Made by a program: the position numbers and the translations under genes
Shown here: piece after piece, positions 7,167 through 47,851 of the stretch
Numbering within the stretch: position 1 is the first letter of the stretch
Layout of the letters: every line of letters begins with the position of its first letter
Source: Candidatus Pacearchaeota archaeon
GTDB lineage: Archaea; Nanobdellota; Nanobdellia; Pacearchaeales; GW2011-AR1
Direction: 5' to 3'
DNA length: 58,708 bases
Assembly (NCBI GenBank): GCA_018304145.1
Contig: JAGVWU010000006.1
Span: forward strand, 1-58,708
Notes under the pieces: model-generated
The model's input: the letters and a program-made list of their open reading frames with translations, nothing else
Told to the model about the DNA's origin: nothing
The model's database searches: none

Positions 7167-8375
7167 TTATCCTTTGTTAAACCTGTTAAGAGCTTCAAAA
7201 AAATCTTTTTCAGAAATGACCTTGTCAACTTCAGATATTCCTCTTTCTCTGACAAAGTCTACAAAAACTTCTCTTTTATATCCTCTTTTTCTCAAAGAGG
7301 CGATAGAAGGAATTCTTTCATCTTCTTCTCCTTTAAAAACTCCCTTATCTATGAGTTCATTTATTTTTCTTTTTGATAAAATCAAATCAGTAAACTTTAT
7401 TCTTCCTATAAAATGAGTTTTTGGAAATTTTTTATTAAAAATATCAAATATCATTTTTTGCCTTTTTGCATTGTCCATATGGTCTTTTCCCCTTATTATA
7501 TGGGTCATTTTAAGTTCAATGTCATCAATTGCCACAGATAAATTCATAAGAGGCCATACTTTATATTTGCTTTTTTTCAAAGGATGTTTATGAAGATTAA
7601 TCCTTGCCAATGGAAAATCTCTCATCGCAGGGTTTGGATCATCTATATCAGATTTAAATCTCAAAACAGCTTCGCCTTCTTTGTAGCCTTTCTTATCAAG
7701 CATTTTTTTCCATCTTTTTAAATTTTCTTTTTTATCTAACAATCTGCATGGACATGGCAGATTATTATTAATAAGTTCTTTAAATTTTTCATTATCGCAA
7801 ACACAGATATAAGCACTGTTTTTATCAATAAGTTTTTTACAGTATTTGTAATAAATTGGGATTCTATCAGAGGCATTAAGATATTTATATACATTTCCAA
7901 AAATCCAATCACAATCTCTTTTTATGTTTTTGTAGGCATTTTTCAAGCAAGTCTTAGGGTCTGTGTCATCGATTATTACATAAAATTTTCCACCATATTT
8001 TTCAACATAAAGAGAGTTAGGAAGATTTGAAATTATATGCCCTATATGAAGAGGACCTGAAGGTCCTGGCCTGTATCTCATTATCACCCCTGTTTTTTCA
8101 TTAACTTCTTCTAATTCAGGAAGCTCATCCCCTCTTTCAGGCCTGTGACCAATCAAATTTTTCCATAAAATAAATTCTTTTTTCTGTTCAGCCAAAGAAA
8201 TTGCATTAACTTCCCTCAGTATTGCATTAACCAGAGGCATGATATCTTTTATTCCATCTTTTGCCAGGCCATGATTGAACAATCCTGAAATAACACTTCC
8301 TGCAACTGCTTTGCCTTCATGTTCAATTGCATTTTTCAATGCATAAGCTTTTATTATTTTTTTGTCAATTGTCAT
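7167..8375 (-). CDS. gltX: Glutamyl-tRNA synthetase, archaeal/eukaryal type: catalytic core only, no anticodon-binding domain
   Basis: HIGH (GPLHIGH) and KMSKS-equivalent (ILSKRK) motifs, plus an N-terminal helical domain. The ORF stops about 65 aa after KMSKS (402 aa, versus about 550 expected from memory). Confidence 0.75.
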   Translation of the reverse strand: MTIDKKIIKAYALKNAIEHEGKAVAGSVISGLFNHGLAKDGIKDIMPLVNAILREVNAISLAEQKKEFILWKNLIGHRPERGDELPELEEVNEKTGVIMRYRPGPSGPLHIGHIISNLPNSLYVEKYGGKFYVIIDDTDPKTCLKNAYKNIKRDCDWIFGNVYKYLNASDRIPIYYKYCKKLIDKNSAYICVCDNEKFKELINNNLPCPCRLLDKKENLKRWKKMLDKKGYKEGEAVLRFKSDIDDPNPAMRDFPLARINLHKHPLKKSKYKVWPLMNLSVAIDDIELKMTHIIRGKDHMDNAKRQKMIFDIFNKKFPKTHFIGRIKFTDLILSKRKINELIDKGVFKGEEDERIPSIASLRKRGYKREVFVDFVRERGISEVDKVISEKDFFEALNRFNKG

Positions 8376-11128: not shown

Positions 11129-11533
11129 TTATCTTTTCTTCTTGTAATTCAAATACCATAGAAAAGCTATAATAAAAGAAGGACATGCTATTTGAAGGCT
11201 CCAAACCAAGTAATACCATTCAAACCCATTATTAATAGAATTAATCATTATCATAGTAATATATGCCAGTCCCCCTAATGTAAAGGTTATTGTTCCTATT
11301 AGTTCTCTTTTCCAGGATATCCATAGAAGTATTGCTAAAATCAGTACAGGAATATTATGCATGAATAATCCAATTAAACATTCTAAAAAACTATTGCAAC
11401 TTTCAAAAATATCCAAAGAAAATATAGCCAGAAACAGCAAGAATAGAATTGATAAAATTCTTGGACTCCAATAAAGAACCCAGCCTATTTTAGGTTTTTT
11501 AATTTTTTTATCAGTCTCTTTTTTTAATTTCAT
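11129..11533 (-). CDS. Integral membrane protein (about 4 TM)
   Basis: Four hydrophobic segments and a basic N-terminus. Confidence 0.55.
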   Translation of the reverse strand: MKLKKETDKKIKKPKIGWVLYWSPRILSILFLLFLAIFSLDIFESCNSFLECLIGLFMHNIPVLILAILLWISWKRELIGTITFTLGGLAYITMIMINSINNGFEWYYLVWSLQIACPSFIIAFLWYLNYKKKR

Positions 11534-27615: not shown

Positions 27616-27654
27616 TATGGTGGATAATAAATTAAAATTAAGGTGGAATTTAAA

Positions 27655-29385
27655 ATGACTATTTTAACATTAAACCGCAAAGAACTTGAAGAAAAAATAG
27701 GCAAGATAACTCCAAAGATGGAGGAAAAACTGAATATGCTTGGAATGCCCATTGAAAGTCTTACTGATGAGGAATTTTCAGTTGATATTACTGCAAATCG
27801 TCCGGATTTATTATCCTTGCAGGGTTATTCCAGAGCAGTTCTTGCTTTTTTGGATAAAAAAACAGGATTGAAAGAATACAAAGTTGAAAAACCTGAAAAA
27901 GATTATTCTGTTATTATAGACAAGTCTGTAAAAAAAGTGCGTCCTTTTACTGTTTGTGCAATTATTAAAAATCTTAAATTTAGTGATGAAAAAATAAGAG
28001 AAATAATTGATATTCAGGAAAAACTTCATTTAGGTTATGGAAGAAACAGAAAGAAACTTGCAATTGGAGTTTATCCTTTGGAGCAGATTAAATTACCTAT
28101 TAGATATCTTGCGAAAAAACCAGAGGACATTAAATTCCAGCCATTGGAATTTCCAAGAGAAATTAATGGAAGGCAGATACTTTCTCAGCATCCTACTGGG
28201 AGAGAATATGGAAAATTATTGCAGGATGAAGAAGTCTTTCCAATTTTTATTGATGCAAATGATGAAATTCTTTCAATGCCTCCTATAATTAATTCTCATA
28301 AAACTGGAAAAATTAATTTAGACACTAAAGAGGTTTTTATTGAATGTTCTGGATTTAATTTAGATTATTTAAAGAAAACATTGAATATGATTGTTTGTGC
28401 TTTGGCTGATATGGGTGGAAAGGTTTATGCAATGGAAATTCATGATTCAGATAAGAAAGAACTTTCTCCAAATTTAGAACCTGAAAAAATGCATTTTTCA
28501 ATTGAAAATGTTAGCAAATTAATTGGAATTGATTTAAATGAAAAAGAAATCAAGGATTACTTGAAGAAAATGGGTTTAGGTTATCAAAAAAACGATGCCA
28601 AAGTATCTCGTTTTTTGGATGCTCGAGAATCACAACACTCTAAAGAGTGTGGTTTTCAAGATTCTCGACATGAAAAAAATACTGCATTTATTCCTTGTTA
28701 TAGAACAGATATGCTTCATGAAGTTGATATTGCAGAGGATATTGCAATTGCCTATGGATATGAAAATCTTGTTCCAGAACTTCCTGAGATTTCAACAATA
28801 GGAGAAGAAGATAATATGGCTGTTAAAAAAAGAAAAATTGCAGAAATTTTAATTGGCTTGGGGTTATTGGAAGTTTCAACCTATCATCTTTCAACAAAAG
28901 AAAAACAATTCAAGAATATTGGAATCAAGGAATTCAGGGATGAGATGATTGAAGTTATTGATTCAAAAACAGAAAATAATATTCTAAGAAATTCTTTACT
29001 TGCTAATTCAATAGCAGTTTTAAACGATAATCTTGATTCTGCATATCCTCAAAAAATCTTTGAATTAGGAAGAATCTTTTACCATGATAAAGATTCTGAA
29101 ACTGAAATCGGAGAAAAGGAAAAACTTTGCATTTCTCTTTGCCATGAAAAGGCTAATTTCACTGAAATAAAGCAAGTCTTGGATTATTTAATCAAAATGC
29201 TTAATTTGAAATATGAAATAAAAGAATTTTCTCACCCTTCTTTTATTGAAGGACGGTGCGGTGAGATAATTGTTAAAAACAAGTCTCTGGGATTTATTGG
29301 AGAAATTCATCCATGCATATTAAAGAACAATAAGATAATGATGCCTGTCTCCAGTCTAGAAATTGATATTGAAAAACTGTTTTAG
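27655..29385 (+). CDS. pheT: Phenylalanyl-tRNA synthetase beta subunit (archaeal type) with an internal palindromic insertion
   Basis: MTILTLNRKELEE, ITANRPDLLS, B3/4 and B5 domains, YRTDMLHEVDIAEDIAIAYGYENL. AAGGTGG Shine-Dalgarno upstream of ATG 27655. Confidence 0.9.
   Translation: MTILTLNRKELEEKIGKITPKMEEKLNMLGMPIESLTDEEFSVDITANRPDLLSLQGYSRAVLAFLDKKTGLKEYKVEKPEKDYSVIIDKSVKKVRPFTVCAIIKNLKFSDEKIREIIDIQEKLHLGYGRNRKKLAIGVYPLEQIKLPIRYLAKKPEDIKFQPLEFPREINGRQILSQHPTGREYGKLLQDEEVFPIFIDANDEILSMPPIINSHKTGKINLDTKEVFIECSGFNLDYLKKTLNMIVCALADMGGKVYAMEIHDSDKKELSPNLEPEKMHFSIENVSKLIGIDLNEKEIKDYLKKMGLGYQKNDAKVSRFLDARESQHSKECGFQDSRHEKNTAFIPCYRTDMLHEVDIAEDIAIAYGYENLVPELPEISTIGEEDNMAVKKRKIAEILIGLGLLEVSTYHLSTKEKQFKNIGIKEFRDEMIEVIDSKTENNILRNSLLANSIAVLNDNLDSAYPQKIFELGRIFYHDKDSETEIGEKEKLCISLCHEKANFTEIKQVLDYLIKMLNLKYEIKEFSHPSFIEGRCGEIIVKNKSLGFIGEIHPCILKNNKIMMPVSSLEIDIEKLF
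28611..28679. repeat. 69-nt imperfect palindrome inside the pheT reading frame
   Basis: Apical stem acaacactc / gagtgtggt with taaa loop. Middle stem tcgagaatc / gattctcga (9 bp). Basal stem atg / cat, with the T-run 28611-28616 opposite the A-run 28673-28679. It encodes about 23 extra residues (SRFLDARESQHSKECGFQDSRHE) where archaeal PheT normally runs straight into the PxYR motif. Confidence 0.7.
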
Positions 29386-31861: not shown

Positions 31862-32036
31862 TGAGCCCACCAAGATTTGAACTTGGGACCCCCGCCTTTC
31901 TTAGCTATTTTGCTTAGAAAATAAATTTCTAGCGAAACCTTCAAATCGTGAGATTTGAATGGTCCAGAGAAAATCAAATTTTCTCTGAATCTATTCTTAT
32001 AAGAGCGGTGCTCTAACCGGGCTGAGCTATGGGCTC
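31862..32036 (-). tRNA. tRNA-Ile (anticodon UAU) with a 100-nt intron at the canonical 37/38 position
   Basis: Exon 1 is 32036-31998: GAGCCCA TA GCTC AGCCCGGTTA GAGC A CCGCT CTTATA. Exon 2 is 31897-31862: A GGCGG GGGTC CCAAG TTCAAAT CTTGG TGGGCTC A. The intron is 31997-31898. A central 4-bp helix CUUA/UAAG is flanked by 3-nt bulges UAA and AAA, consistent with a (relaxed) BHB. Confidence 0.75.
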
Positions 32037-34323: not shown

Positions 34324-35613
34324 ATGTTAATAGGACTTGTAGGTAAACCTTCGGCAGGTAAAAGCACTTTTTTCAAAGCTTGCACATTGGCAGATGTGCT
34401 TATAGCATCATATCCCTTTGCAACAATAAAACCCAATCATGGGATTGGCTATGTTAAGATTGACTGCATTGATAAAGAGTTTGGTGTTAAATGCAATCCT
34501 CACAAAGGATATTGTGTCAATGGAAAAAGATTTGTTCCAATTGATTTGCTTGATGTTGCTGGATTAGTTGAAGGTGCTTCTGAAGGAAAAGGACTTGGAA
34601 ATGAATTTTTAAGTGATTTGACATCTGCCGATGCATTAATTCACATTGTTGATATAAGTGGAGAAACAGATGCAGGAGGAAAAGAAATCAAGGGTTATAA
34701 TCCTGTCAATGATGTCAAAATGCTGGAAAATGAATTAGATTTGTGGTATCTTGGTATATTAAACAAGGTTTGGAAAGGTTTTGCTAGACTTGTCCAGAAT
34801 ACAAAACAAGAATTGCATAAAGCAATCACTAACCAATTTTCAGGATTAAAAGTAAAAGAAGAGGATGTTAAAAGAATTCTTATAAAAGGAAATTACAATA
34901 TTGAAAAGCCTTCTGAATGGAGCGATAAGGATTTAAAAAATTTTAGCCATGAATTAAGACATCTGACAAAACCTATGATTATAGCTGCAAACAAATGCGA
35001 CAGGCCTGATGCTGCTGAAAATTTAAAGAAACTTAAAAAAGCTTATCCTGAACTAATGATTGTTCCTTGTTCTGCTGATTCTGAATTATCTTTAAGATTG
35101 GCTAACAATGCGGGTTTGATTGAATATATTCCTGGAGAAAATCATTTTAAAATGTCAAGAACCCTCGGACTAAAGTCTAGAGCGTGTTCTCGGGTTCTTG
35201 AGCACCATCAAGATTTGAATTTGACCAACTATGATAAAACAAATGCAAATCTTGAGGTTTTAAAAGAACTTTCTGAAAAACAGAAAATCGCCCTTAATTT
35301 AATAAATGAAAATGTTCTTGAAGTTTATGATTCAACAGGAATACAGGAAGTTTTAAACAAAGTTATTTTTGATTTATTGAAATACATTGCAATTTTTCCA
35401 GCTGGTGCTCACAAGCTTGCTGATTCAAAAGGAAATATCCTTCCTGATTGTTTTTTATTGCCTGATGGCTCAACTGCCCTTGATTTTGCATTTGCAATCC
35501 ATACTGATTTGGGAAAGAATTTCATAAGGGCAATTAATGCCAAGACAAAAATGGTTGTTGGAAAAGAGTATAAACTGAAGCATAGGGATGGGCTGGAAAT
35601 TATAACTAGATGA
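34324..35613 (+). CDS. YchF/Obg-family GTPase with C-terminal TGS domain, carrying an internal palindromic insertion
   Basis: G1 GKPSAGKST, G3 DVAGLV, G4 NKCD, TGS-like C-terminus (GSTALDFAFAIHTDLGKNF). About 35 aa longer than the Methanocaldococcus homologue recalled from memory. Confidence 0.85.
   Translation: MLIGLVGKPSAGKSTFFKACTLADVLIASYPFATIKPNHGIGYVKIDCIDKEFGVKCNPHKGYCVNGKRFVPIDLLDVAGLVEGASEGKGLGNEFLSDLTSADALIHIVDISGETDAGGKEIKGYNPVNDVKMLENELDLWYLGILNKVWKGFARLVQNTKQELHKAITNQFSGLKVKEEDVKRILIKGNYNIEKPSEWSDKDLKNFSHELRHLTKPMIIAANKCDRPDAAENLKKLKKAYPELMIVPCSADSELSLRLANNAGLIEYIPGENHFKMSRTLGLKSRACSRVLEHHQDLNLTNYDKTNANLEVLKELSEKQKIALNLINENVLEVYDSTGIQEVLNKVIFDLLKYIAIFPAGAHKLADSKGNILPDCFLLPDGSTALDFAFAIHTDLGKNFIRAINAKTKMVVGKEYKLKHRDGLEIITR
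35155..35255. repeat. About 100-nt double-hairpin element inside the GTPase reading frame
   Basis: Module 1: tcaagaaccc (35155-35164) / gggttcttga (35192-35201), enclosing ggac taaa gtc. Module 2: tcaagatttg (35208-35217) / caaatcttga (35246-35255). The outer stem sequence is shared with intergenic repeat family A. Confidence 0.7.
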
Positions 35614-36116: not shown

Positions 36117-38906
36117 ATGGCTGAAAAATTTGTTTATTCATTTAAAGAAGGAAATAAAGAAATGAAGGAATTGCTCGGAGGAAAAGGAGCAAATCTTGCT
36201 GAAATGACTTCTATTGGATTGCCAGTTCCTCTTGGATTCACAATTACTACAAGAGTGTGTGATTTTTATTATAAAAATAATAAAAAGTTGTCTGCTGAAA
36301 TACAGGAACAGATTTTTACAAAATTAAAGGAACTTGAGATAGAAATGGGGAAAAGACTTGGAGATAAAAATGACCCTTTGCTGGTTTCTGTGAGAAGCGG
36401 TGCTGCTTCATCAATGCCTGGAATGATGGACACTATCTTGAATTTGGGGTTAAACGATGAAACTGTTGAAGGCTTGGCTATTAAAACAGGAAATCCGAGA
36501 TTTGTCTATGATTCTTACAGAAGATTCATACAGATGTTTGGAGATGTTGTAATGGGAGTTGAGCATAAATTCTTTGAAGAAATTATTCATAGAATCAAAA
36601 GCCAGAAGATGATAAAATTTGACAATGAACTGAATGTTGATGATTTAAAGAGATTGATTGAAATGTACAAACAATTAATTAAAATGAAAACTAATAAGAT
36701 GTTTCCTTCTGATGTTCATGAGCAATTGAGCATGGCTATAGATGCTGTTTTTAATTCGTGGAATAATGACCGGGCAATAACTTATAGAAGGTTGAATAAC
36801 ATTTATGGTTTAATTGGAACTGCTGTCAATATACAGTCAATGGTTTTTGGAAACATGGGAGAAGATTCTGGGACAGGAGTTTGTTTTACAAGAAATCCTT
36901 CAACAGGAGAAAACAAATTTTATGGAGAGTTTTTAATGAATGCACAGGGAGAGGATGTTGTTGCTGGAATAAGAACTCCCAGAAAGATTGAAGAACTGGA
37001 AAGCATAATGTCTGCAAATTATTCTCAATTGGTTAATGTCAGAAAAATTCTTGAAGCTCATTACCGAGATATGCAGGATATTGAATTTACAATTGAAAAG
37101 GGAAAATTATATATTTTGCAGACAAGAAATGGAAAAAGAACAAGTCAGGCTGCTGTAAGGATTGCAGTTGAAATGGTGGAAAATGGAATGATAAGCAAGG
37201 AAACTGCTTTGATGAGAGTAGAACCAAGTTCTTTAAATCAATTATTGCATAAACAATTGGACAATAATTCAAAGAAAAATATGAAAGTATTAGCAAAAGG
37301 TTTGCCTGCTTCTCCTGGCGCTGCTGTTGGAAGGGTTGTTTTTAATGCAGAAGATGCCTATGAATGGGCTGTAAAAGGGGAAAAAGTTGTTTTAGTAAGA
37401 TTAGAAACAAGTCCTGAAGATATTGAAGGAATGCACTCTTCGCAGGGAATTTTAACTGGCAGAGGTGGAATGACTTCACATGCAGCTGTTGTTGCCAGAG
37501 GAATGGGGAAATGCTGTGTTGCAGGATGTTCAGATTTGATTATAAATGAAATTGAGAAAATAATTGAAATAAATGGAGCAAGAATAAGAGAAGGGGAATT
37601 TATAACTTTAGATGGAAGTTCTGGAGAAATATTCTTAGGAAAATTAGAATTAGTTGAGCCAATTTTATCTGGAAATTTTGGAAAAATAATGCAATGGGCA
37701 GATGAATACAGGAAAATAGGTGTAAGGACAAATGCTGACACTCCTAAAGATGCCTCGACTGCCATAAAATTTGGAGCAGAAGGAATTGGATTATGCAGAA
37801 CAGAACATATGTTTTTTGAAGAATCCAGAATAAAAGTAATGAGAGAAATGATTTTATCAAATACAAAGCAAGAAAGAGAAAGGGCTTTGTTAAAGCTTCT
37901 TCCAATGCAAAGAGGAGATTTTTATTCTTTATTTCAAATAATGAATGGATTGCCTGTTACAATCAGGTTTTTAGATCCTCCTTTGCATGAGTTTTTGCCA
38001 AAGGAAGAGGATAAAATTCAGGAATTAGCAAGGGAAATGGGTGTTAGTGTAGAAGTGTTAAAAGATAAAACAGCTGAACTGCATGAATTTAATCCAATGT
38101 TAGGGCACAGAGGATGCAGATTAGGGATTACTTTTCCTGAGATTACTGAAATGCAGTCAAGGGCTGTTTTTGAAGCAGCTTCTGAGATAATAAAGGAAGG
38201 AAAATCTATTGTTCCTGAAATAATGATTCCGATTGTTGGAAATATAAAAGAATTTGAGCATCAGAAGAAAATAGTTGATGAAACAGCTAGAAAAGTTATG
38301 AGAGAAAATAATGTCCTTATTGAGTATAAAACTGGAACAATGATTGAGGTTCCAAGGGCTGCTGTGACTGCTGATGAGTTAGCTGAAAAAGCTGAATTTT
38401 TTTCTTTTGGCACAAATGATTTGACTCAAATGGGATGCGGTTTTTCAAGAGATGATTCTGCAAAGTTTCTAAAAGAATATGTTGAATTAGGAATCTATAA
38501 AAGAGATCCTTTTGAAACAATTGATCAGGAGGGAGTTGGTGAATTGATGAAAATTGCAGTTCAAAAAGCAAAGCCTGTTAGAGAGAATATAAAGTTAGGA
38601 ATCTGCGGTGAGCATGGAGGAGATCCTGAAACAATAGAATTTTGTCATAAAATAGGATTAAGTTATGTTTCATGTTCACCTTTTAGAGTTCCTATTGCAC
38701 GATTAGCCGGAGCGCAGTCTTCAATAAAAGAAAAAAAGAAAATTGAAGAAAATGCTTATAAGAAAATGATTAAAGAATCAATTATTGAAATTAGAAATAA
38801 ATTTGGTGAGAGAATTTCTATTGATGAATTGGAAAATGAACTTTATAAAAAGATAAATCCTAAGGCTGTGGAAAACCTATTCACACAGGAAATCTTACAA
38901 AATTAA
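36117..38906 (+). CDS. ppdK: Pyruvate, phosphate dikinase
   Basis: Full-length match by eye: GGKGANLAEM, SVRSGAASSMPGMMDT, TGRGGMTSHAAVVARGMG (phospho-His), NADTP, GLCRTEHMF, GTNDLTQ. About 55 aa C-terminal extension. Confidence 0.95.
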   Translation: MAEKFVYSFKEGNKEMKELLGGKGANLAEMTSIGLPVPLGFTITTRVCDFYYKNNKKLSAEIQEQIFTKLKELEIEMGKRLGDKNDPLLVSVRSGAASSMPGMMDTILNLGLNDETVEGLAIKTGNPRFVYDSYRRFIQMFGDVVMGVEHKFFEEIIHRIKSQKMIKFDNELNVDDLKRLIEMYKQLIKMKTNKMFPSDVHEQLSMAIDAVFNSWNNDRAITYRRLNNIYGLIGTAVNIQSMVFGNMGEDSGTGVCFTRNPSTGENKFYGEFLMNAQGEDVVAGIRTPRKIEELESIMSANYSQLVNVRKILEAHYRDMQDIEFTIEKGKLYILQTRNGKRTSQAAVRIAVEMVENGMISKETALMRVEPSSLNQLLHKQLDNNSKKNMKVLAKGLPASPGAAVGRVVFNAEDAYEWAVKGEKVVLVRLETSPEDIEGMHSSQGILTGRGGMTSHAAVVARGMGKCCVAGCSDLIINEIEKIIEINGARIREGEFITLDGSSGEIFLGKLELVEPILSGNFGKIMQWADEYRKIGVRTNADTPKDASTAIKFGAEGIGLCRTEHMFFEESRIKVMREMILSNTKQERERALLKLLPMQRGDFYSLFQIMNGLPVTIRFLDPPLHEFLPKEEDKIQELAREMGVSVEVLKDKTAELHEFNPMLGHRGCRLGITFPEITEMQSRAVFEAASEIIKEGKSIVPEIMIPIVGNIKEFEHQKKIVDETARKVMRENNVLIEYKTGTMIEVPRAAVTADELAEKAEFFSFGTNDLTQMGCGFSRDDSAKFLKEYVELGIYKRDPFETIDQEGVGELMKIAVQKAKPVRENIKLGICGEHGGDPETIEFCHKIGLSYVSCSPFRVPIARLAGAQSSIKEKKKIEENAYKKMIKESIIEIRNKFGERISIDELENELYKKINPKAVENLFTQEILQN

Positions 38907-39017
38907 TTTCTAAGAAATTAAAAATTAGAATATGTCTATGTGAATAGGTTTTAAAGAGTGCTTGATGAATTGTTAAATTAAAATGCTGGATAAATTATTA
39001 AGAAAAAAAGAGTGAAA

Positions 39018-39299
39018 ATGGAATTAATAAGACTGAGTTATGATAGAAAAAAAAATTCTTTTAGAGTTTATGGAAGTGAATTTGGACTTTCTAGTGTTGT
39101 ACGTTTAACTCCTGTTTTTAGTGCAAATGATTCTAGTGATGTTGAAAGAGAAGCAAGAGATTTACAATCTACTTATCCTGTTAATGCTTATTTGCTAGAT
39201 AGCAAAGGGTGCAGAGCAAGATTGTATTTTTTGTCAAAAGAGGAATATGTTCAATCAATTGAAGTTAGAAAACTTGTTGAAGACGAACGATTGAGATGA
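39018..39299 (+). CDS. Hypothetical protein (93 aa)
   Basis: The ORF track starts at GTG 39012; ATG is at 39018. Confidence 0.45.
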   Translation: MELIRLSYDRKKNSFRVYGSEFGLSSVVRLTPVFSANDSSDVEREARDLQSTYPVNAYLLDSKGCRARLYFLSKEEYVQSIEVRKLVEDERLR

Positions 39300-39502
39300 G
39301 ATATAAGCAGGATTGATAAAAGATTAATTATTGGATTAAGAGTAGGAGTTGAAAGATAAGACAATCGGTTTCAGATTCTGTTTTATTTGGAGAATTAACT
39401 GATATAAATCTTAAATAATTATCAAATTATGTTTTAGTTAATCATTATGATGAAAGAGCGTATAGATTTTTAGAATACAGAGGCGGGATATATGACTAGA
39501 TT

Positions 39503-39677
39503 TTAACACATAAAAAATGCTCTTTGCGTACGCTATGGGCTTTAGTCCATAAAAAGCAAAGGCATTTTTGGGGTAATCAAGAACCAAACACGCCATATGA
39601 AACAAAAAAAATATTTTTACTAATTATTATAAGATTGGAAAATGCTTTTTGTTTGCTTTAGCCCATGATTCTTGACA
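39503..39677 (+). repeat. Dispersed structured repeat, family A, copy 2 (with about 55-nt internal insertion)
   Basis: Matches 2534-2653 with 6 mismatches over the first about 97 nt, then again over the last about 22 nt. There are extra AT-rich nucleotides at about 39598-39655. Confidence 0.85.
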
Positions 39678-39783
39678 GCTTGCTGAAAAAGAGATGCTCA
39701 AGAAAGAATAGAAAGGACATTTATATTAATTCTAAATTATAAGTAGGAAAAAGTTTAAATAGTAGTTCTTACTATAAATTTGT

Positions 39784-40035
39784 ATGATAATTAGACGGGA
39801 AATTGGAGAAAAGGGACAGGTAGTAATACCAAAAGATATTCGCGAACATTTAGGATTAAATATAGGAGTAAATATAATCTTTGAGGTTAGAGATAATGAA
39901 GTTGTTTTAAAAAAAGAAGATGATGCTTCAAAAATTGTAGAAGATTTTTTTAATACACCTAAAATTAAAAGAAAGATAGATGTCAAAGAATTAAAAAAGA
40001 TATATAAAGAGCAATATGAAGAAGAAGTACATTGA
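39784..40035 (+). CDS. vapB: AbrB/SpoVT-family antitoxin (VapB-like)
   Basis: RREIGEKGQVVIPKDIREHLGLNIGVNIIFEVRDNEVVL. Overlaps the PIN gene by 20 nt. Confidence 0.7.
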   Translation: MIIRREIGEKGQVVIPKDIREHLGLNIGVNIIFEVRDNEVVLKKEDDASKIVEDFFNTPKIKRKIDVKELKKIYKEQYEEEVH

Positions 40036-40420
40036 TGCTAATATATTTATACAAGGAATTTTAAGAAATGATAATAATTCTAAAAATGTGATATTAAAAA
40101 TTGCAAATAAAGAATTTATAGGAGTAACATCAGTTTTAAGTTGGGATGAAATAACCTTCATCGTTAAAAAATTTTTAGGTAAAGGACTTGCAGAGATTGA
40201 GGGAAAGAAATTTTTTAGTTTACCTAATTTTATATTTGTTGATGCAAAAAAAGATATAATTATCAAAGCTCAAAAATTATTTGAAGAATATAATCTGATG
40301 CCTAGAGATGCAATTCATGCTGCTACAGCTATTTATTTAAATATTGATGAAATGATTTCTGAAGATATTGATTTTGATAAGATTAAAGAATTAAAGAGAA
40401 TAAATCCAGTTAATGTTTGA
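40016..40420 (+). CDS. vapC: PIN-domain toxin (VapC-like)
   Basis: YIDANIFIQ..., PRDAIHAATAI, and an acidic C-terminal residue pattern. Confidence 0.7.
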   Translation: MKKKYIDANIFIQGILRNDNNSKNVILKIANKEFIGVTSVLSWDEITFIVKKFLGKGLAEIEGKKFFSLPNFIFVDAKKDIIIKAQKLFEEYNLMPRDAIHAATAIYLNIDEMISEDIDFDKIKELKRINPVNV

Positions 40421-40565
40421 TGGTTTGTAGCAAGGAAGTTTTAATTAATGTTATGCAGGATGGGTTGTTGGTTTTGAAAAACAATTAATTCTAAATATTA
40501 TAAATTGCGTCTAGAAAATTATAGGGAATAACATTAATTTTCGTATATTTATTATGTTATTCCCC

Positions 40566-40633
40566 AATACAAGAAAATTCATTCAGAGGAATTTTCTGTA
40601 CAGAAAATCTTCCTGAAAAGATTTTCTTGTATT
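40566..40633 (+). repeat. Dispersed hairpin-cluster repeat, family B, copy 1
   Basis: 13-bp outer stem aatacaagaaaat / attttcttgtatt. Overlapping inner hairpins attttctg ta cagaaaat and aaaatctt cctgaa aagatttt. Similar to 43911-43979. Confidence 0.7.
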
Positions 40634-40673
40634 GAAGTTATTTGCTATAATAATATACTTATTTGATAGAATA

Positions 40674-41288
40674 TTATTTCAAGGAATTCAAGATGTCTTT
40701 AGTTATCTTATCAATATTTTGCTCACCATTGATTTTTATTAGAATATCTTGATATTCTTTTAAAATCGGCTCTGTTTCGTTATGGTAAATTTCAAGCCTC
40801 TTTTTTATTGCCCGCTCATTATCATCTGTTCTTCTGACTAATTTTCCTCCGCATAAATCACAATGAAGCGGGTTCTTTGGCTTTGGTTCTGTAAAAATAT
40901 TATAACTTTCATTGCATTTTTCACAGCTCACTCTTCCTGATAATCTTTTTATTGCTTCTTGGTCTGACAAAGTTATTTCAATAACTTTGTCAATGTCTGT
41001 TATTGTTTTAAATAAACTGGCTTGATTTAGATTTCTTGGAAAACCATCTAAGATAAAACCTCTTTTGCAGTCAGGCTGAAAAATTCTTTTTTTTAATATC
41101 TTTAAGGTTAGTTCATCTGGAACTAATTTACCCTGTTCCATGTATTCATCTAATTCTTCTTTTAATTCCTCTTCTGCATTTCTGAATAAATCTCCTATTG
41201 AAATGTGAGGGATATTCAATTGTTTAGACATTATTGCTGCCTGAGTTCCTTTGCCTGAACCTTGGGGGCCGATAAATAAGAGTTTCAT
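40674..41288 (-). CDS. adk: Adenylate kinase (long type with zinc lid)
   Basis: GPQGSGKGTQ, ILDGFPRN, lid CEKC...CDLCGG. Confidence 0.9.
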   Translation of the reverse strand: MKLLFIGPQGSGKGTQAAIMSKQLNIPHISIGDLFRNAEEELKEELDEYMEQGKLVPDELTLKILKKRIFQPDCKRGFILDGFPRNLNQASLFKTITDIDKVIEITLSDQEAIKRLSGRVSCEKCNESYNIFTEPKPKNPLHCDLCGGKLVRRTDDNERAIKKRLEIYHNETEPILKEYQDILIKINGEQNIDKITKDILNSLK

Positions 41289-43910: not shown

Positions 43911-43979
43911 CAAGAACACATGAAAATCTGCAGGATTTTCTGTGCAGAAAATTCTTTTGAAAGAATTTTCTTGCATTGA
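43911..43979 (+). repeat. Dispersed hairpin-cluster repeat, family B, copy 2
   Basis: attttctg tg cagaaaat and gaaaattctt ttga aagaattttc followed by ttgcattgaa. Collinear with 40566-40636. Confidence 0.7.
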
Positions 43980-46870: not shown

Positions 46871-47851
46871 ATGATACTTGGAATTGAATCAACAGCACAT
46901 ACGTTTGGAATAGGGATAGTTGAGAAAGGCAAAATTCTTTCTAATGTCAAGGATGCTTATACAACTGAAAAAGGAGGCATTATTCCAATGGAAAGTGCAA
47001 AGCATCATGCAAGAGTTGCTGAAGAGATTTATAGAAAAGCTTTGAATGATGCAGAAATTTCTGAGAAAGAAATTTCTGCGATTGCAATATCCCAGGCACC
47101 TGGATTAGCACCATGTTTGCTTGAAGGAATGAAATTTGCAAAGAAAAAAGCTGTTGAATTAAATGTTTCTATAATTCCTGTAAATCATTGTGTCGCACAT
47201 CTTGAAATAGGAAGACTTACTGGAGCAAAAGATCCTGTTTTGCTTTATGCTTCAGGCGCAAATACACAGATAATTGCTTATGCAGCTGGAAAGTACAGAG
47301 TTTTTGGAGAAACCCTTGATATTGGAATCGGAAATTTTATTGATATTTTTGCAAGGCATATTGGGTTAGGTTTTCCAGGAGGGCCTAAAATAATGGAACT
47401 TGCTAAGTCAGGAAAGTATGTTGAAATTCCTTATTCAATAAAAGGAATGGATGTTGCTTTTTCAGGTTTATTAACTAATTTAAAACAGAAGTTTGATTCA
47501 AAAAAATATAAAATTGAAGATTTATGCTATTCCTTGCAGGAAACTGCATTTGCAATGTTAATAGAAGCAAGTGAAAGAGCATTGGCTCATACTGGAAAAA
47601 AAGAACTGCTTATTGGAGGAGGTGTTGCATGCAATACTCGTTTGCAGGAAATGTGCAGAATAATGTGTGAAGAAAGAGGATGCAAACTCTTTTGTCCAGC
47701 AAATCAATTTTTAACGGACAATGGAGCCATGATAGCATATTTAGGGGAGATAATGTTTAACAAAGGAACCAAAATTGATATTAAAGATTTTGATAAGCTG
47801 GATATTAATTCAAGAGAAAGAACAGATATGGTTGAAGTGAAGTGGAGATGA
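46871..47851 (+). CDS. kae1: tRNA N6-adenosine threonylcarbamoyltransferase Kae1 (no Bud32 fusion)
   Basis: ILGIESTAHTFGIGIV, NHCVAHLEIG, GGGVACN, DNGAMIA. Confidence 0.9.
   Translation: MILGIESTAHTFGIGIVEKGKILSNVKDAYTTEKGGIIPMESAKHHARVAEEIYRKALNDAEISEKEISAIAISQAPGLAPCLLEGMKFAKKKAVELNVSIIPVNHCVAHLEIGRLTGAKDPVLLYASGANTQIIAYAAGKYRVFGETLDIGIGNFIDIFARHIGLGFPGGPKIMELAKSGKYVEIPYSIKGMDVAFSGLLTNLKQKFDSKKYKIEDLCYSLQETAFAMLIEASERALAHTGKKELLIGGGVACNTRLQEMCRIMCEERGCKLFCPANQFLTDNGAMIAYLGEIMFNKGTKIDIKDFDKLDINSRERTDMVEVKWR

Follow-up and report, generated by a model that had tools for sequence, protein, structure and literature searches.

The window analyzed here, a 58,708-nt stretch of contig JAGVWU010000006.1 from a Candidatus Pacearchaeota archaeon, contains at 34324-35613 on the plus strand a gene with an intact open reading frame (ORF) for a YchF/YGR210-like Obg-family GTPase of 429 aa, and within this gene lies a DNA element that forms two adjacent hairpins. 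Pfam recognized MMR_HSR1, YGR210-like_G4 and TGS domains in the product, whose top matches were metagenome-assembled genomes (MAGs) of DPANN archaea labelled Pacearchaeota, Nanoarchaeia or Nanoarchaeota. Judged by these matches, by the low G+C content of the window (28.7%) and by a tRNA with a long intron, the DNA does not come from a methanogen. The nearest solved structure, from Pyrococcus horikoshii (PDB 1wxq, E 7e-109), has no insert at the corresponding site. Among the 120 best matches, which made up the homologue comparison, nearly all proteins are 392-395 aa long, compared to 429 aa here. An earlier note on this DNA had counted about 33 extra residues relative to a Methanocaldococcus homologue; the extra residues are real, and their net number is 35, encoded by a 105-nt element at about 35153-35257 whose sense orientation is on the minus strand. 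With A/T runs on either side, its borders are uncertain by 1-2 nt.

The closest orthologue that lacks the element (P0002, on contig L001) defines an empty site, as its protein is 94% identical outside the gap. In the alignments, exactly 35 residues are missing from this protein, between ...GENHFK and LKELSEKQK, and the DNA shows a clean 105-nt gap between CATTTTAAA(A) and TTTTAAAAGAA. The insertion site is the middle of an A/T palindrome in the ychF-like gene, with one TTTTAAAA on each side of the insertion point; since the empty site already has these flanking motifs, they do not represent a target duplication. The Logan assembly SRR2090152, made independently, carries the same insert letter for letter with identical flanks, and since this sequence comes from another data set, the insert is not an assembly artefact. 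The insert is limited to one shallow lineage, consisting of the window and one 99%-identical contig, and the gene order around the GTPase is syntenic with that of relatives. The G+C content of the insert is 41%, compared to 33% for the remainder of the gene and 28.7% for the window.

Structure and reading frame of the insert

Both hairpins that the earlier note had described at 35155-35255 were confirmed, with outer stems of 10 perfect bp each. Hairpin 1 (35155-35201, minus strand) corresponds to module 2, which is the conserved module of the family, and pairs TCAAGAACCC with GGGTTCTTGA around GGAC-TAAA-GTC; on the minus strand it reads TCAAGAACCC-GAGAACACGC-TCTAGAC-TTTA-GTCCGA-GGGTTCTTGA. Hairpin 2 (35208-35255, minus strand) is module 1, in which TCAAGATTTG pairs with CAAATCTTGA; here the outer stem is intact, whereas the interior has become shorter and has diverged. 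Between the two lies a spacer at 35202-35207 (TGGTGC on the minus strand, GCACCA on the plus strand) with a G(T/C)GC tetranucleotide, which in this position 5' of module 2 hardly varies. In minus-strand order the complete insert is therefore CC, module 1 (TCAAGATTTG...CAAATCTTGA), TGGTGC, module 2 as given above, and CA.

The hairpin region folds with an energy of -39.6 kcal/mol on the plus strand (z -3.7) and -44.5 kcal/mol on the minus strand (z -4.3), and none of 200 shuffles folded as well. The insert by itself reaches -34.0 kcal/mol (z -4.6), and the minimum-energy structure consists of two self-contained hairpins closed by A/U flanks. The window contains two occurrences of the stem pattern TCAAGAACC-N10-40-GGTTCTTGA, at 2608-2651 and at 35155-35201, compared to an expectation of 0.00 based on 100 shuffles.

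Of the six reading frames through the 105-nt insert, a single one lacks stops, and this is the frame of the host gene. From the length, a multiple of three, and the absence of stops, the insert is most likely translated, and predicted tryptic peptides encoded by it include VLEHHQDLNLTNYDK. An AlphaFold2 model of the GTPase (pTM, the predicted template modeling score, of 0.82; alignment of 46 sequences) is confident outside the loop, while residues 279-312 have a predicted local distance difference test score (pLDDT) of ~29, below 50, and no secondary structure, between a strand at 275-277 and a helix at 318-335. The structure model proposed in the earlier note as a check thus predicts that the insert is located in a disordered surface loop between confident elements. 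That note also held that its finding would fail if the extra residues were conserved in distant homologues lacking the DNA palindromes, and this did not happen: orthologues do not have the peptide, and when 1.84 billion representative proteins were scanned in full with HMMER no homologue was found, the one match being a chance WD40 repeat. A conserved protein insertion domain was rejected on the same ground, as its sole peptide match is the WD40 coincidence.

The same GTPase loop holds unrelated inserts of 18-19 residues in two other DPANN lineages, in proteins P0100 and P0096, so the site is a permissive one. In the locus encoding P0100 (L139), the insert contains a 9-bp DNA hairpin, TGAGAATTC-AAA-GAATTCTCA (z -3.35), and the one encoding P0096 (L167) is weakly palindromic.

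A modular repeat family in DPANN genomes

Two intergenic copies of a related repeat, family A, are present in the window on the plus strand: copy 1 at 2534-2653 (120 nt, TTAACACAT...GGTTCTTGACA) and copy 2 at 39503-39677, which is split by a nested 55-nt insert at 39600-39654. The proposal that the first stem of the GTPase insert belongs with this family, in opposite orientation, is borne out by a blastn match within the window between 2588-2653 and 35223-35153 on opposite strands (74% over 72 nt, E 4e-5). The proposal had tied only the first hairpin to family A; the link is real, and a single two-module element on the minus strand makes up all of the insert. It shares with family A the layout of module 1, a short spacer ending in G(T/C)G(C/A), module 2 and CA, and the two have the same right end. 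For family A, 14 metagenome loci were found; they represent at least 10 distinct flanks, and the copies have 96-99% identity and sharp ends at TTAACACAT...GGTTCTTGACA.

The nearest relatives of the GTPase insert belong to a sister subfamily, TTGAAACC-TCAAGATTTG...CAAATCTTGA-TGGTGC-TCAAGAACC...TTGACA, with at least 25 copies in the MAG Nanoarchaeota H32-bin099_1 and a few in three other MAGs; the contigs L025, L065, L096 and L111 are four contigs of one MAG, not four genomes. The insert aligns base for base with two-module H32-bin099_1 copies, including TGGTGC and the right end TTCTTGACA. Compared to full-length copies, its module 1 interior is shorter and diverged, and both outer stems are kept. 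The second hairpin of the earlier note is therefore likewise repeat-derived, being a degenerate copy of module 1, with its nearest kin in the sister subfamily and not in family A. These results support the claim that the coding insertion derives from a dispersed non-coding repeat, inverted relative to family A.

Further genomic copies of the stem, another check that the earlier note had set, were found in many DPANN MAGs and metagenome loci, while the closest syntenic contigs of relatives (L001 and L123) carry no element copies. Scanning GTDB representative genomes with the module 2 stem returned ~30 DPANN loci, plus chance bacterial matches, and the consensus at the DPANN loci is G(T/C)GC-TCAAGAACC-N-(A/G)ACACGCC-stem-TTTA/TTCA-stem'-GGTTCTTGA-CA. 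The invariance of the outer stem in this set is uninformative because it was fixed by the search pattern, whereas no such constraint applied to the inner stem. Each of the five inner-stem pairs varies on both sides among 17 copies, with 95.5% of cells paired, a level that none of 500 shuffles attained and that compares to 32-50% in slid controls. A covariance model of module 2 trained on these 17 copies, the GTPase copy among them, scored that copy at 67.5 bits on the minus strand and 19.5 bits on the plus strand, and also found an extra copy outside the training set at 28615-28671 (30.8 bits, E 1.6e-5).

This extra copy is part of a second in-frame insert, located in the gene for the beta subunit of phenylalanyl-tRNA synthetase (PheRS; 27643-29385). 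The PheRS insert occupies 28591-28671 on the plus strand in sense orientation (81 nt, 27 codons; hairpin at 28623-28668), and is made up of module 1 in truncated form, GGATGC as spacer, a module 2 hairpin (TCGAGAATC...GATTCTCGA) and a canonical GACAT end. Its 9-bp stem is perfect, with two compensated differences from the consensus. The insert is missing from nine orthologues, including one that is 83% identical on a syntenic contig.

In-frame copies were also found outside the window. At L146 1754-1879, a 120-nt copy splits a TehB-like methyltransferase, and once the 40 aa are removed, Pfam gives a single contiguous match of 73 bits in place of two stretches (63 bits). A 78-nt copy at L152 2670-2783 lies in the AAA_14-DUF4143 linker of an ATPase, and a family A copy at L130 3699-3821 stands in frame between a HicA domain and a C-terminal tail, so that hicA is probably a further host gene. 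The methyltransferase, ATPase and hicA cases were picked by demanding an open spanning frame and thus give no measure of frequency; element copies are mostly intergenic. Two other candidates in the window, a hairpin in the Kae1 gene (47051-47079) and a model match in the glutamyl-tRNA synthetase gene (8044-8091), were rejected as coding inserts and are native sequence.

The ends of the element are conserved yet asymmetric, TTGAAACC... / ...TTCTTGACA in 24 copies of the subfamily and TTAACACAT... / ...TTGACA in family A. Neither the 24 copies nor family A have terminal inverted repeats, only the internal feet TCAAGA/TCTTGA being inverted. No target duplication was found in the two comparisons of filled and empty sites (GTPase and PheRS), and among the 24 copies any 3-nt flank match is common to at most four. 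With neither terminal inverted repeats nor target-site duplication, the element does not match a classical MITE (miniature inverted-repeat transposable element). In 24 of 24 copies the first hairpin is preceded by TTGAAA(CC), and in the GTPase copy by TTAAAA(CC), a stretch that may belong either to the target or to the element; 5' of module 2 stands the tetranucleotide GTGC instead of GTAG. Orientation relative to flanking genes is even (10:10:6:4 over four arrangements), and for this reason a strand-specific RNA role, such as a terminator, was dropped.

Neither gathering nor permissive thresholds yielded an Rfam 15 family for the element, only sub-threshold matches to generic hairpins, and within the window Rfam recognized four tRNAs only. 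The IMG/VR collection gave 8 pattern matches with a single weak model match (25.9 bits); since its viral contigs hold essentially none of the elements, we rejected a virus-borne element. Literature searches returned no description of such repeats in DPANN archaea. The family is thus new and apparently undescribed, while the phenomenon is already known from the Rickettsia palindromic elements (RPEs) discussed below.

Several side observations concern these copies and their surroundings. The TAA stop of the histidyl-tRNA synthetase gene (1368-2537; stop at 2534-2537) lies within TTAACACAT, the conserved left terminus of family A copy 1, which adjoins or supplies the end of that gene. The 55-nt insert in module 2 of family A copy 2 is AT-rich with 9-nt terminal inverted repeats, AAACAAAAA / TTTTTGTTT, and may be a nested mini-element. 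Around this copy, the window (38906-40674) is ~1.7 kb longer than contig L001, where pyruvate phosphate dikinase is directly followed by adenylate kinase (11203-11322); the extra sequence comprises an ORF of 95 aa, family A copy 2, a gene for a PIN-domain protein and hairpin modules. A different type of hairpin module, ACAAGAAAATTC.../ACAGAAAATC..., occurs at 40565-40634 and 43927-43978 as 52-nt inverted copies 3.3 kb apart that flank the adenylate kinase gene, a PIN gene and a metallopeptidase gene. At locus L136 a family A module 1 is fused to this ACAAGAAAATTC/ACAGAAAATC module type, which suggests a modular repeat superfamily. The family A peptide was found only in spurious ORFs of 40-64 aa: one MAG of Candidatus Pacearchaeota has family A copies listed as hypothetical proteins of this length (P0241-P0246, J4429_*), spurious calls that arise from the element's open sense frame.

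Further observations concern PheRS and in-frame copies elsewhere. P0121, encoded on an ENA contig (L124 1145-1630), is the same as the PheRS beta subunit of the window from about residue 165 on, including the insert, and its N-terminal ~160 aa are strongly divergent, reflecting either a recombinant allele or a chimeric contig. The PheRS beta subunit P0215 of another lineage (L140) has two extra segments, one of them at the insert site seen in the window; they contain weak degenerate palindromes (e.g. TCAAAGAAACC...GGTGTCTTAGA), undetected by the covariance model, that could be old, decayed element copies. An in-frame copy also lies near the N-terminus of a 231-aa membrane ORF (L135 9837-9958).

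The tRNA at 31862-32036 on the minus strand (Rfam, 49 bits; missed by ARAGORN) has a ~104-nt anticodon-loop intron of three small hairpins. A resemblance of TTCAAATCTTGATGGTGCTCA to its 3' end at 31862-31885 was discarded as chance, since an 11-mer identity is expected for a window of this size and composition (E 0.037).

Origin and fate of the insert

With a probability of about 80%, we read the insert as a selfish, non-autonomous palindromic repeat of the RPE kind that is tolerated in a surface loop of the GTPase and translated as a disordered loop of 35 residues. A hairpin repeat widespread in Nanoarchaeia-type DPANN archaea, for which we use the working name "DPANN palindromic element", would have integrated antisense into the ychF-like gene at the center of the A/T palindrome, a point encoding the loop between a beta-strand (...HFK) and a helix (LSEKQK...). 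As this copy is 3n long with one stop-free frame, the gene stays open, and transcription and translation of the element would then give a disordered surface loop of 35 residues that may be neutral or mildly deleterious. The insert is present in one lineage and absent from its relatives, it belongs to a repeat family with a covarying hairpin, and in-frame insertions recur in other genes. The insert is probably retained in mRNA and protein.

The distribution fits a non-autonomous mobile, or otherwise self-spreading, DNA repeat. Elements of this family lack terminal inverted repeats and target duplications and have subterminal imperfect hairpins, as do IS200/IS605 and REP-RAYT elements (REP, repetitive extragenic palindromic; RAYT, REP-associated tyrosine transposase), and this anatomy resembles those types more closely than classical MITEs. 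Mobilization could by this resemblance involve a hairpin-recognizing HUH enzyme of the IS200/IS605 or REP-RAYT type; a Y1 HUH transposase was not found in the sequence examined, namely the window and the loci around copies.

Several results weigh against this picture of a tolerated mobile repeat. No transposase was detected in the window (Pfam, 10 ORFs), and neither a repeated ORF nor a transposase occurs in the 140 kb around the 25 H32-bin099_1 copies, so that mobility is deduced from distribution only. ORFs between paired copies at two other loci (L108 and L035) are housekeeping or toxin-antitoxin-like genes, with no transposase among them. A source copy of the GTPase-type subfamily is missing from ~160 kb of the same population, made up of the window and 100 kb of related metagenome loci (L125-L138). 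Among 25 full-length subfamily copies, antisense frames were open in none, while two sense frames were open in 21 and 16. Antisense copies thus usually bear stops, and the GTPase copy must have been an unusual variant before insertion or been altered afterwards. In this copy, additional bases inside module 2 move the frame beyond one of the stops, and the other is gone with the replacement of the interior of module 1; only such a stop-free variant could persist in an essential gene. Finally, the perfect outer stems and the compensated changes in the PheRS stem could reflect selection for the hairpin, not pure neutrality.

Selection of this kind is central to the idea that the insert has been exapted, with the loop or the DNA or RNA hairpins now functional as a partner-binding loop, a translational pause or a recombination signal. 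Both 10-bp outer stems of the GTPase insert are perfect, the PheRS copy holds a perfect 9-bp stem via two compensated differences, and the same GTPase loop gained inserts independently in at least two other lineages, all of which favor a function; a recent insertion would, however, equally leave perfect stems. We regard exaptation as unlikely, as the insert occurs in one shallow lineage and is missing at 94% protein identity, and its peptide is without homologues and disordered by prediction; this shallow spread and the disorder that is predicted instead favor an insertion that is recent and tolerated. Excision from the RNA, as an archaeal bulge-helix-bulge (BHB) intron removed by the tRNA splicing endonuclease or as some other structured RNA, would leave a protein of 394 aa. 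DPANN archaea are rich in unusual introns, a tRNA in the window has a ~104-nt hairpin intron, and the exon flanks UUUUAAAA / UUUUAAAA can pair to close a three-way junction around both hairpins. We nevertheless consider splicing very improbable, since a relaxed BHB scan gave 7 loose matches in the GTPase and 11 in the PheRS gene, none at the junctions, compared to 15.2 per random box. Moreover, both inserts have a length of 3n and carry no stop in the frame of the host gene, neither of which splicing would need, and the element is antisense in the GTPase and sense in PheRS, with most copies intergenic in either orientation.

Hardest to credit is an artefact or a dying gene, that is, a chimeric assembly at the repeat or a pseudogene backed by another copy. 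Repeats do misassemble in metagenomes, and the N-terminal 160 aa of the PheRS on L124 are perhaps chimeric, but the independent assembly from another data set holds identical insert and flanks and the gene order is syntenic with relatives. The GTPase ORF, for its part, is full length with all conserved motifs, and AlphaFold2 is confident outside the loop. Beyond the reading of the insert as a tolerated selfish repeat, a more speculative and rather doubtful extension is that the hairpins represent a structure-specific mobile element system common to Nanoarchaeia-type DPANN archaea, which would use a hairpin-recognizing enzyme (HUH or new), seed loops in essential proteins and keep its hairpins under selection even within genes. 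This idea derives from several features of the family: the stem TCAAGAACC/GGTTCTTGA and the ACACGC bulge are conserved, the inner stem covaries, modules form arrays, and target duplication is absent.

If the insert is a tolerated selfish repeat, "selfish DNA inside protein-coding genes", classically described in Rickettsia, now extends to DPANN archaea. This would support the idea that weak selection in reduced, host-dependent genomes lets palindromic repeats enter essential genes (ychF, pheT). The repeat family makes lineage-specific indels in marker proteins, which affects DPANN alignments, phylogenies and structure predictions, and it yields spurious small ORFs in MAG annotations. The covarying hairpin with its invariant bulge also provides a handle for finding a protein that binds or moves the element.

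Comparison with known repeat systems

REPs and bacterial interspersed mosaic elements (BIMEs) are short imperfect hairpins with GTAG 5' of the stem, arranged in mosaic arrays, mostly extragenic and without terminal inverted repeats or target duplication. The DPANN elements resemble these and IS200/IS605-derived elements in their hairpins, 5' tetranucleotide, modular arrays, mostly extragenic location and lack of both terminal inverted repeats and target-site duplications. They differ from the REP/RAYT system in having GTGC as the tetranucleotide instead of GTAG and in that no Y1/HUH transposase was found near any copy; REPs, moreover, are not known for in-frame coding insertions. Mobile hairpin inserts in coding sequence that are not spliced out also include the 'byp' elements of Magnusiomyces mitochondria and the insert of T4 gene 60, which break the frame and are skipped by the ribosome. 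The GTPase insert would likewise be a mobile hairpin insert in coding sequence that is not spliced out, and because its frame is open no ribosome bypass is needed, unlike in byp and T4 gene 60.

The closest parallel in functional class is with the RPEs. According to PMC10969869 and PMC2229807, RPEs (Ogata et al. 2000) are hairpin repeats that are found both between genes and in frame within housekeeping genes, with ~12-bp terminal inverted repeats and nearly half of copies in genes, and the insert in gmk has experimental evidence of translation and tolerance. These papers also describe archaeal repeats fused into protein genes. For Methanocaldococcus jannaschii, which belongs to the Euryarchaeota and not to DPANN, PMC2229807 cites repetitive elements that are palindromic and have coding potential (Suyama et al. 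2005), an archaeal precedent.

Unlike RPEs, the archaeal elements end asymmetrically (TTGAAACC... / ...TTGACA), lack both terminal inverted repeats and target duplications, and are assembled from interchangeable hairpin modules. In the subfamily scan, only 2 of ~30 copies lie convincingly within genes, compared to nearly half of RPEs. The two also belong to different domains of life, where no sequence relationship is expected, and the likeness is one of functional class. Within that class, both are dispersed hairpin repeats of ~100-150 bp that occur between genes and in frame in conserved genes at fold-compatible sites, and both are carried by host-dependent organisms with reduced genomes. The DPANN element shows several features of an RPE-like repeat: it is palindromic and dispersed in multiple copies, it has an open frame and is absent from orthologues, it occurs in several unrelated hosts, and in the GTPase it sits at a predicted loop.

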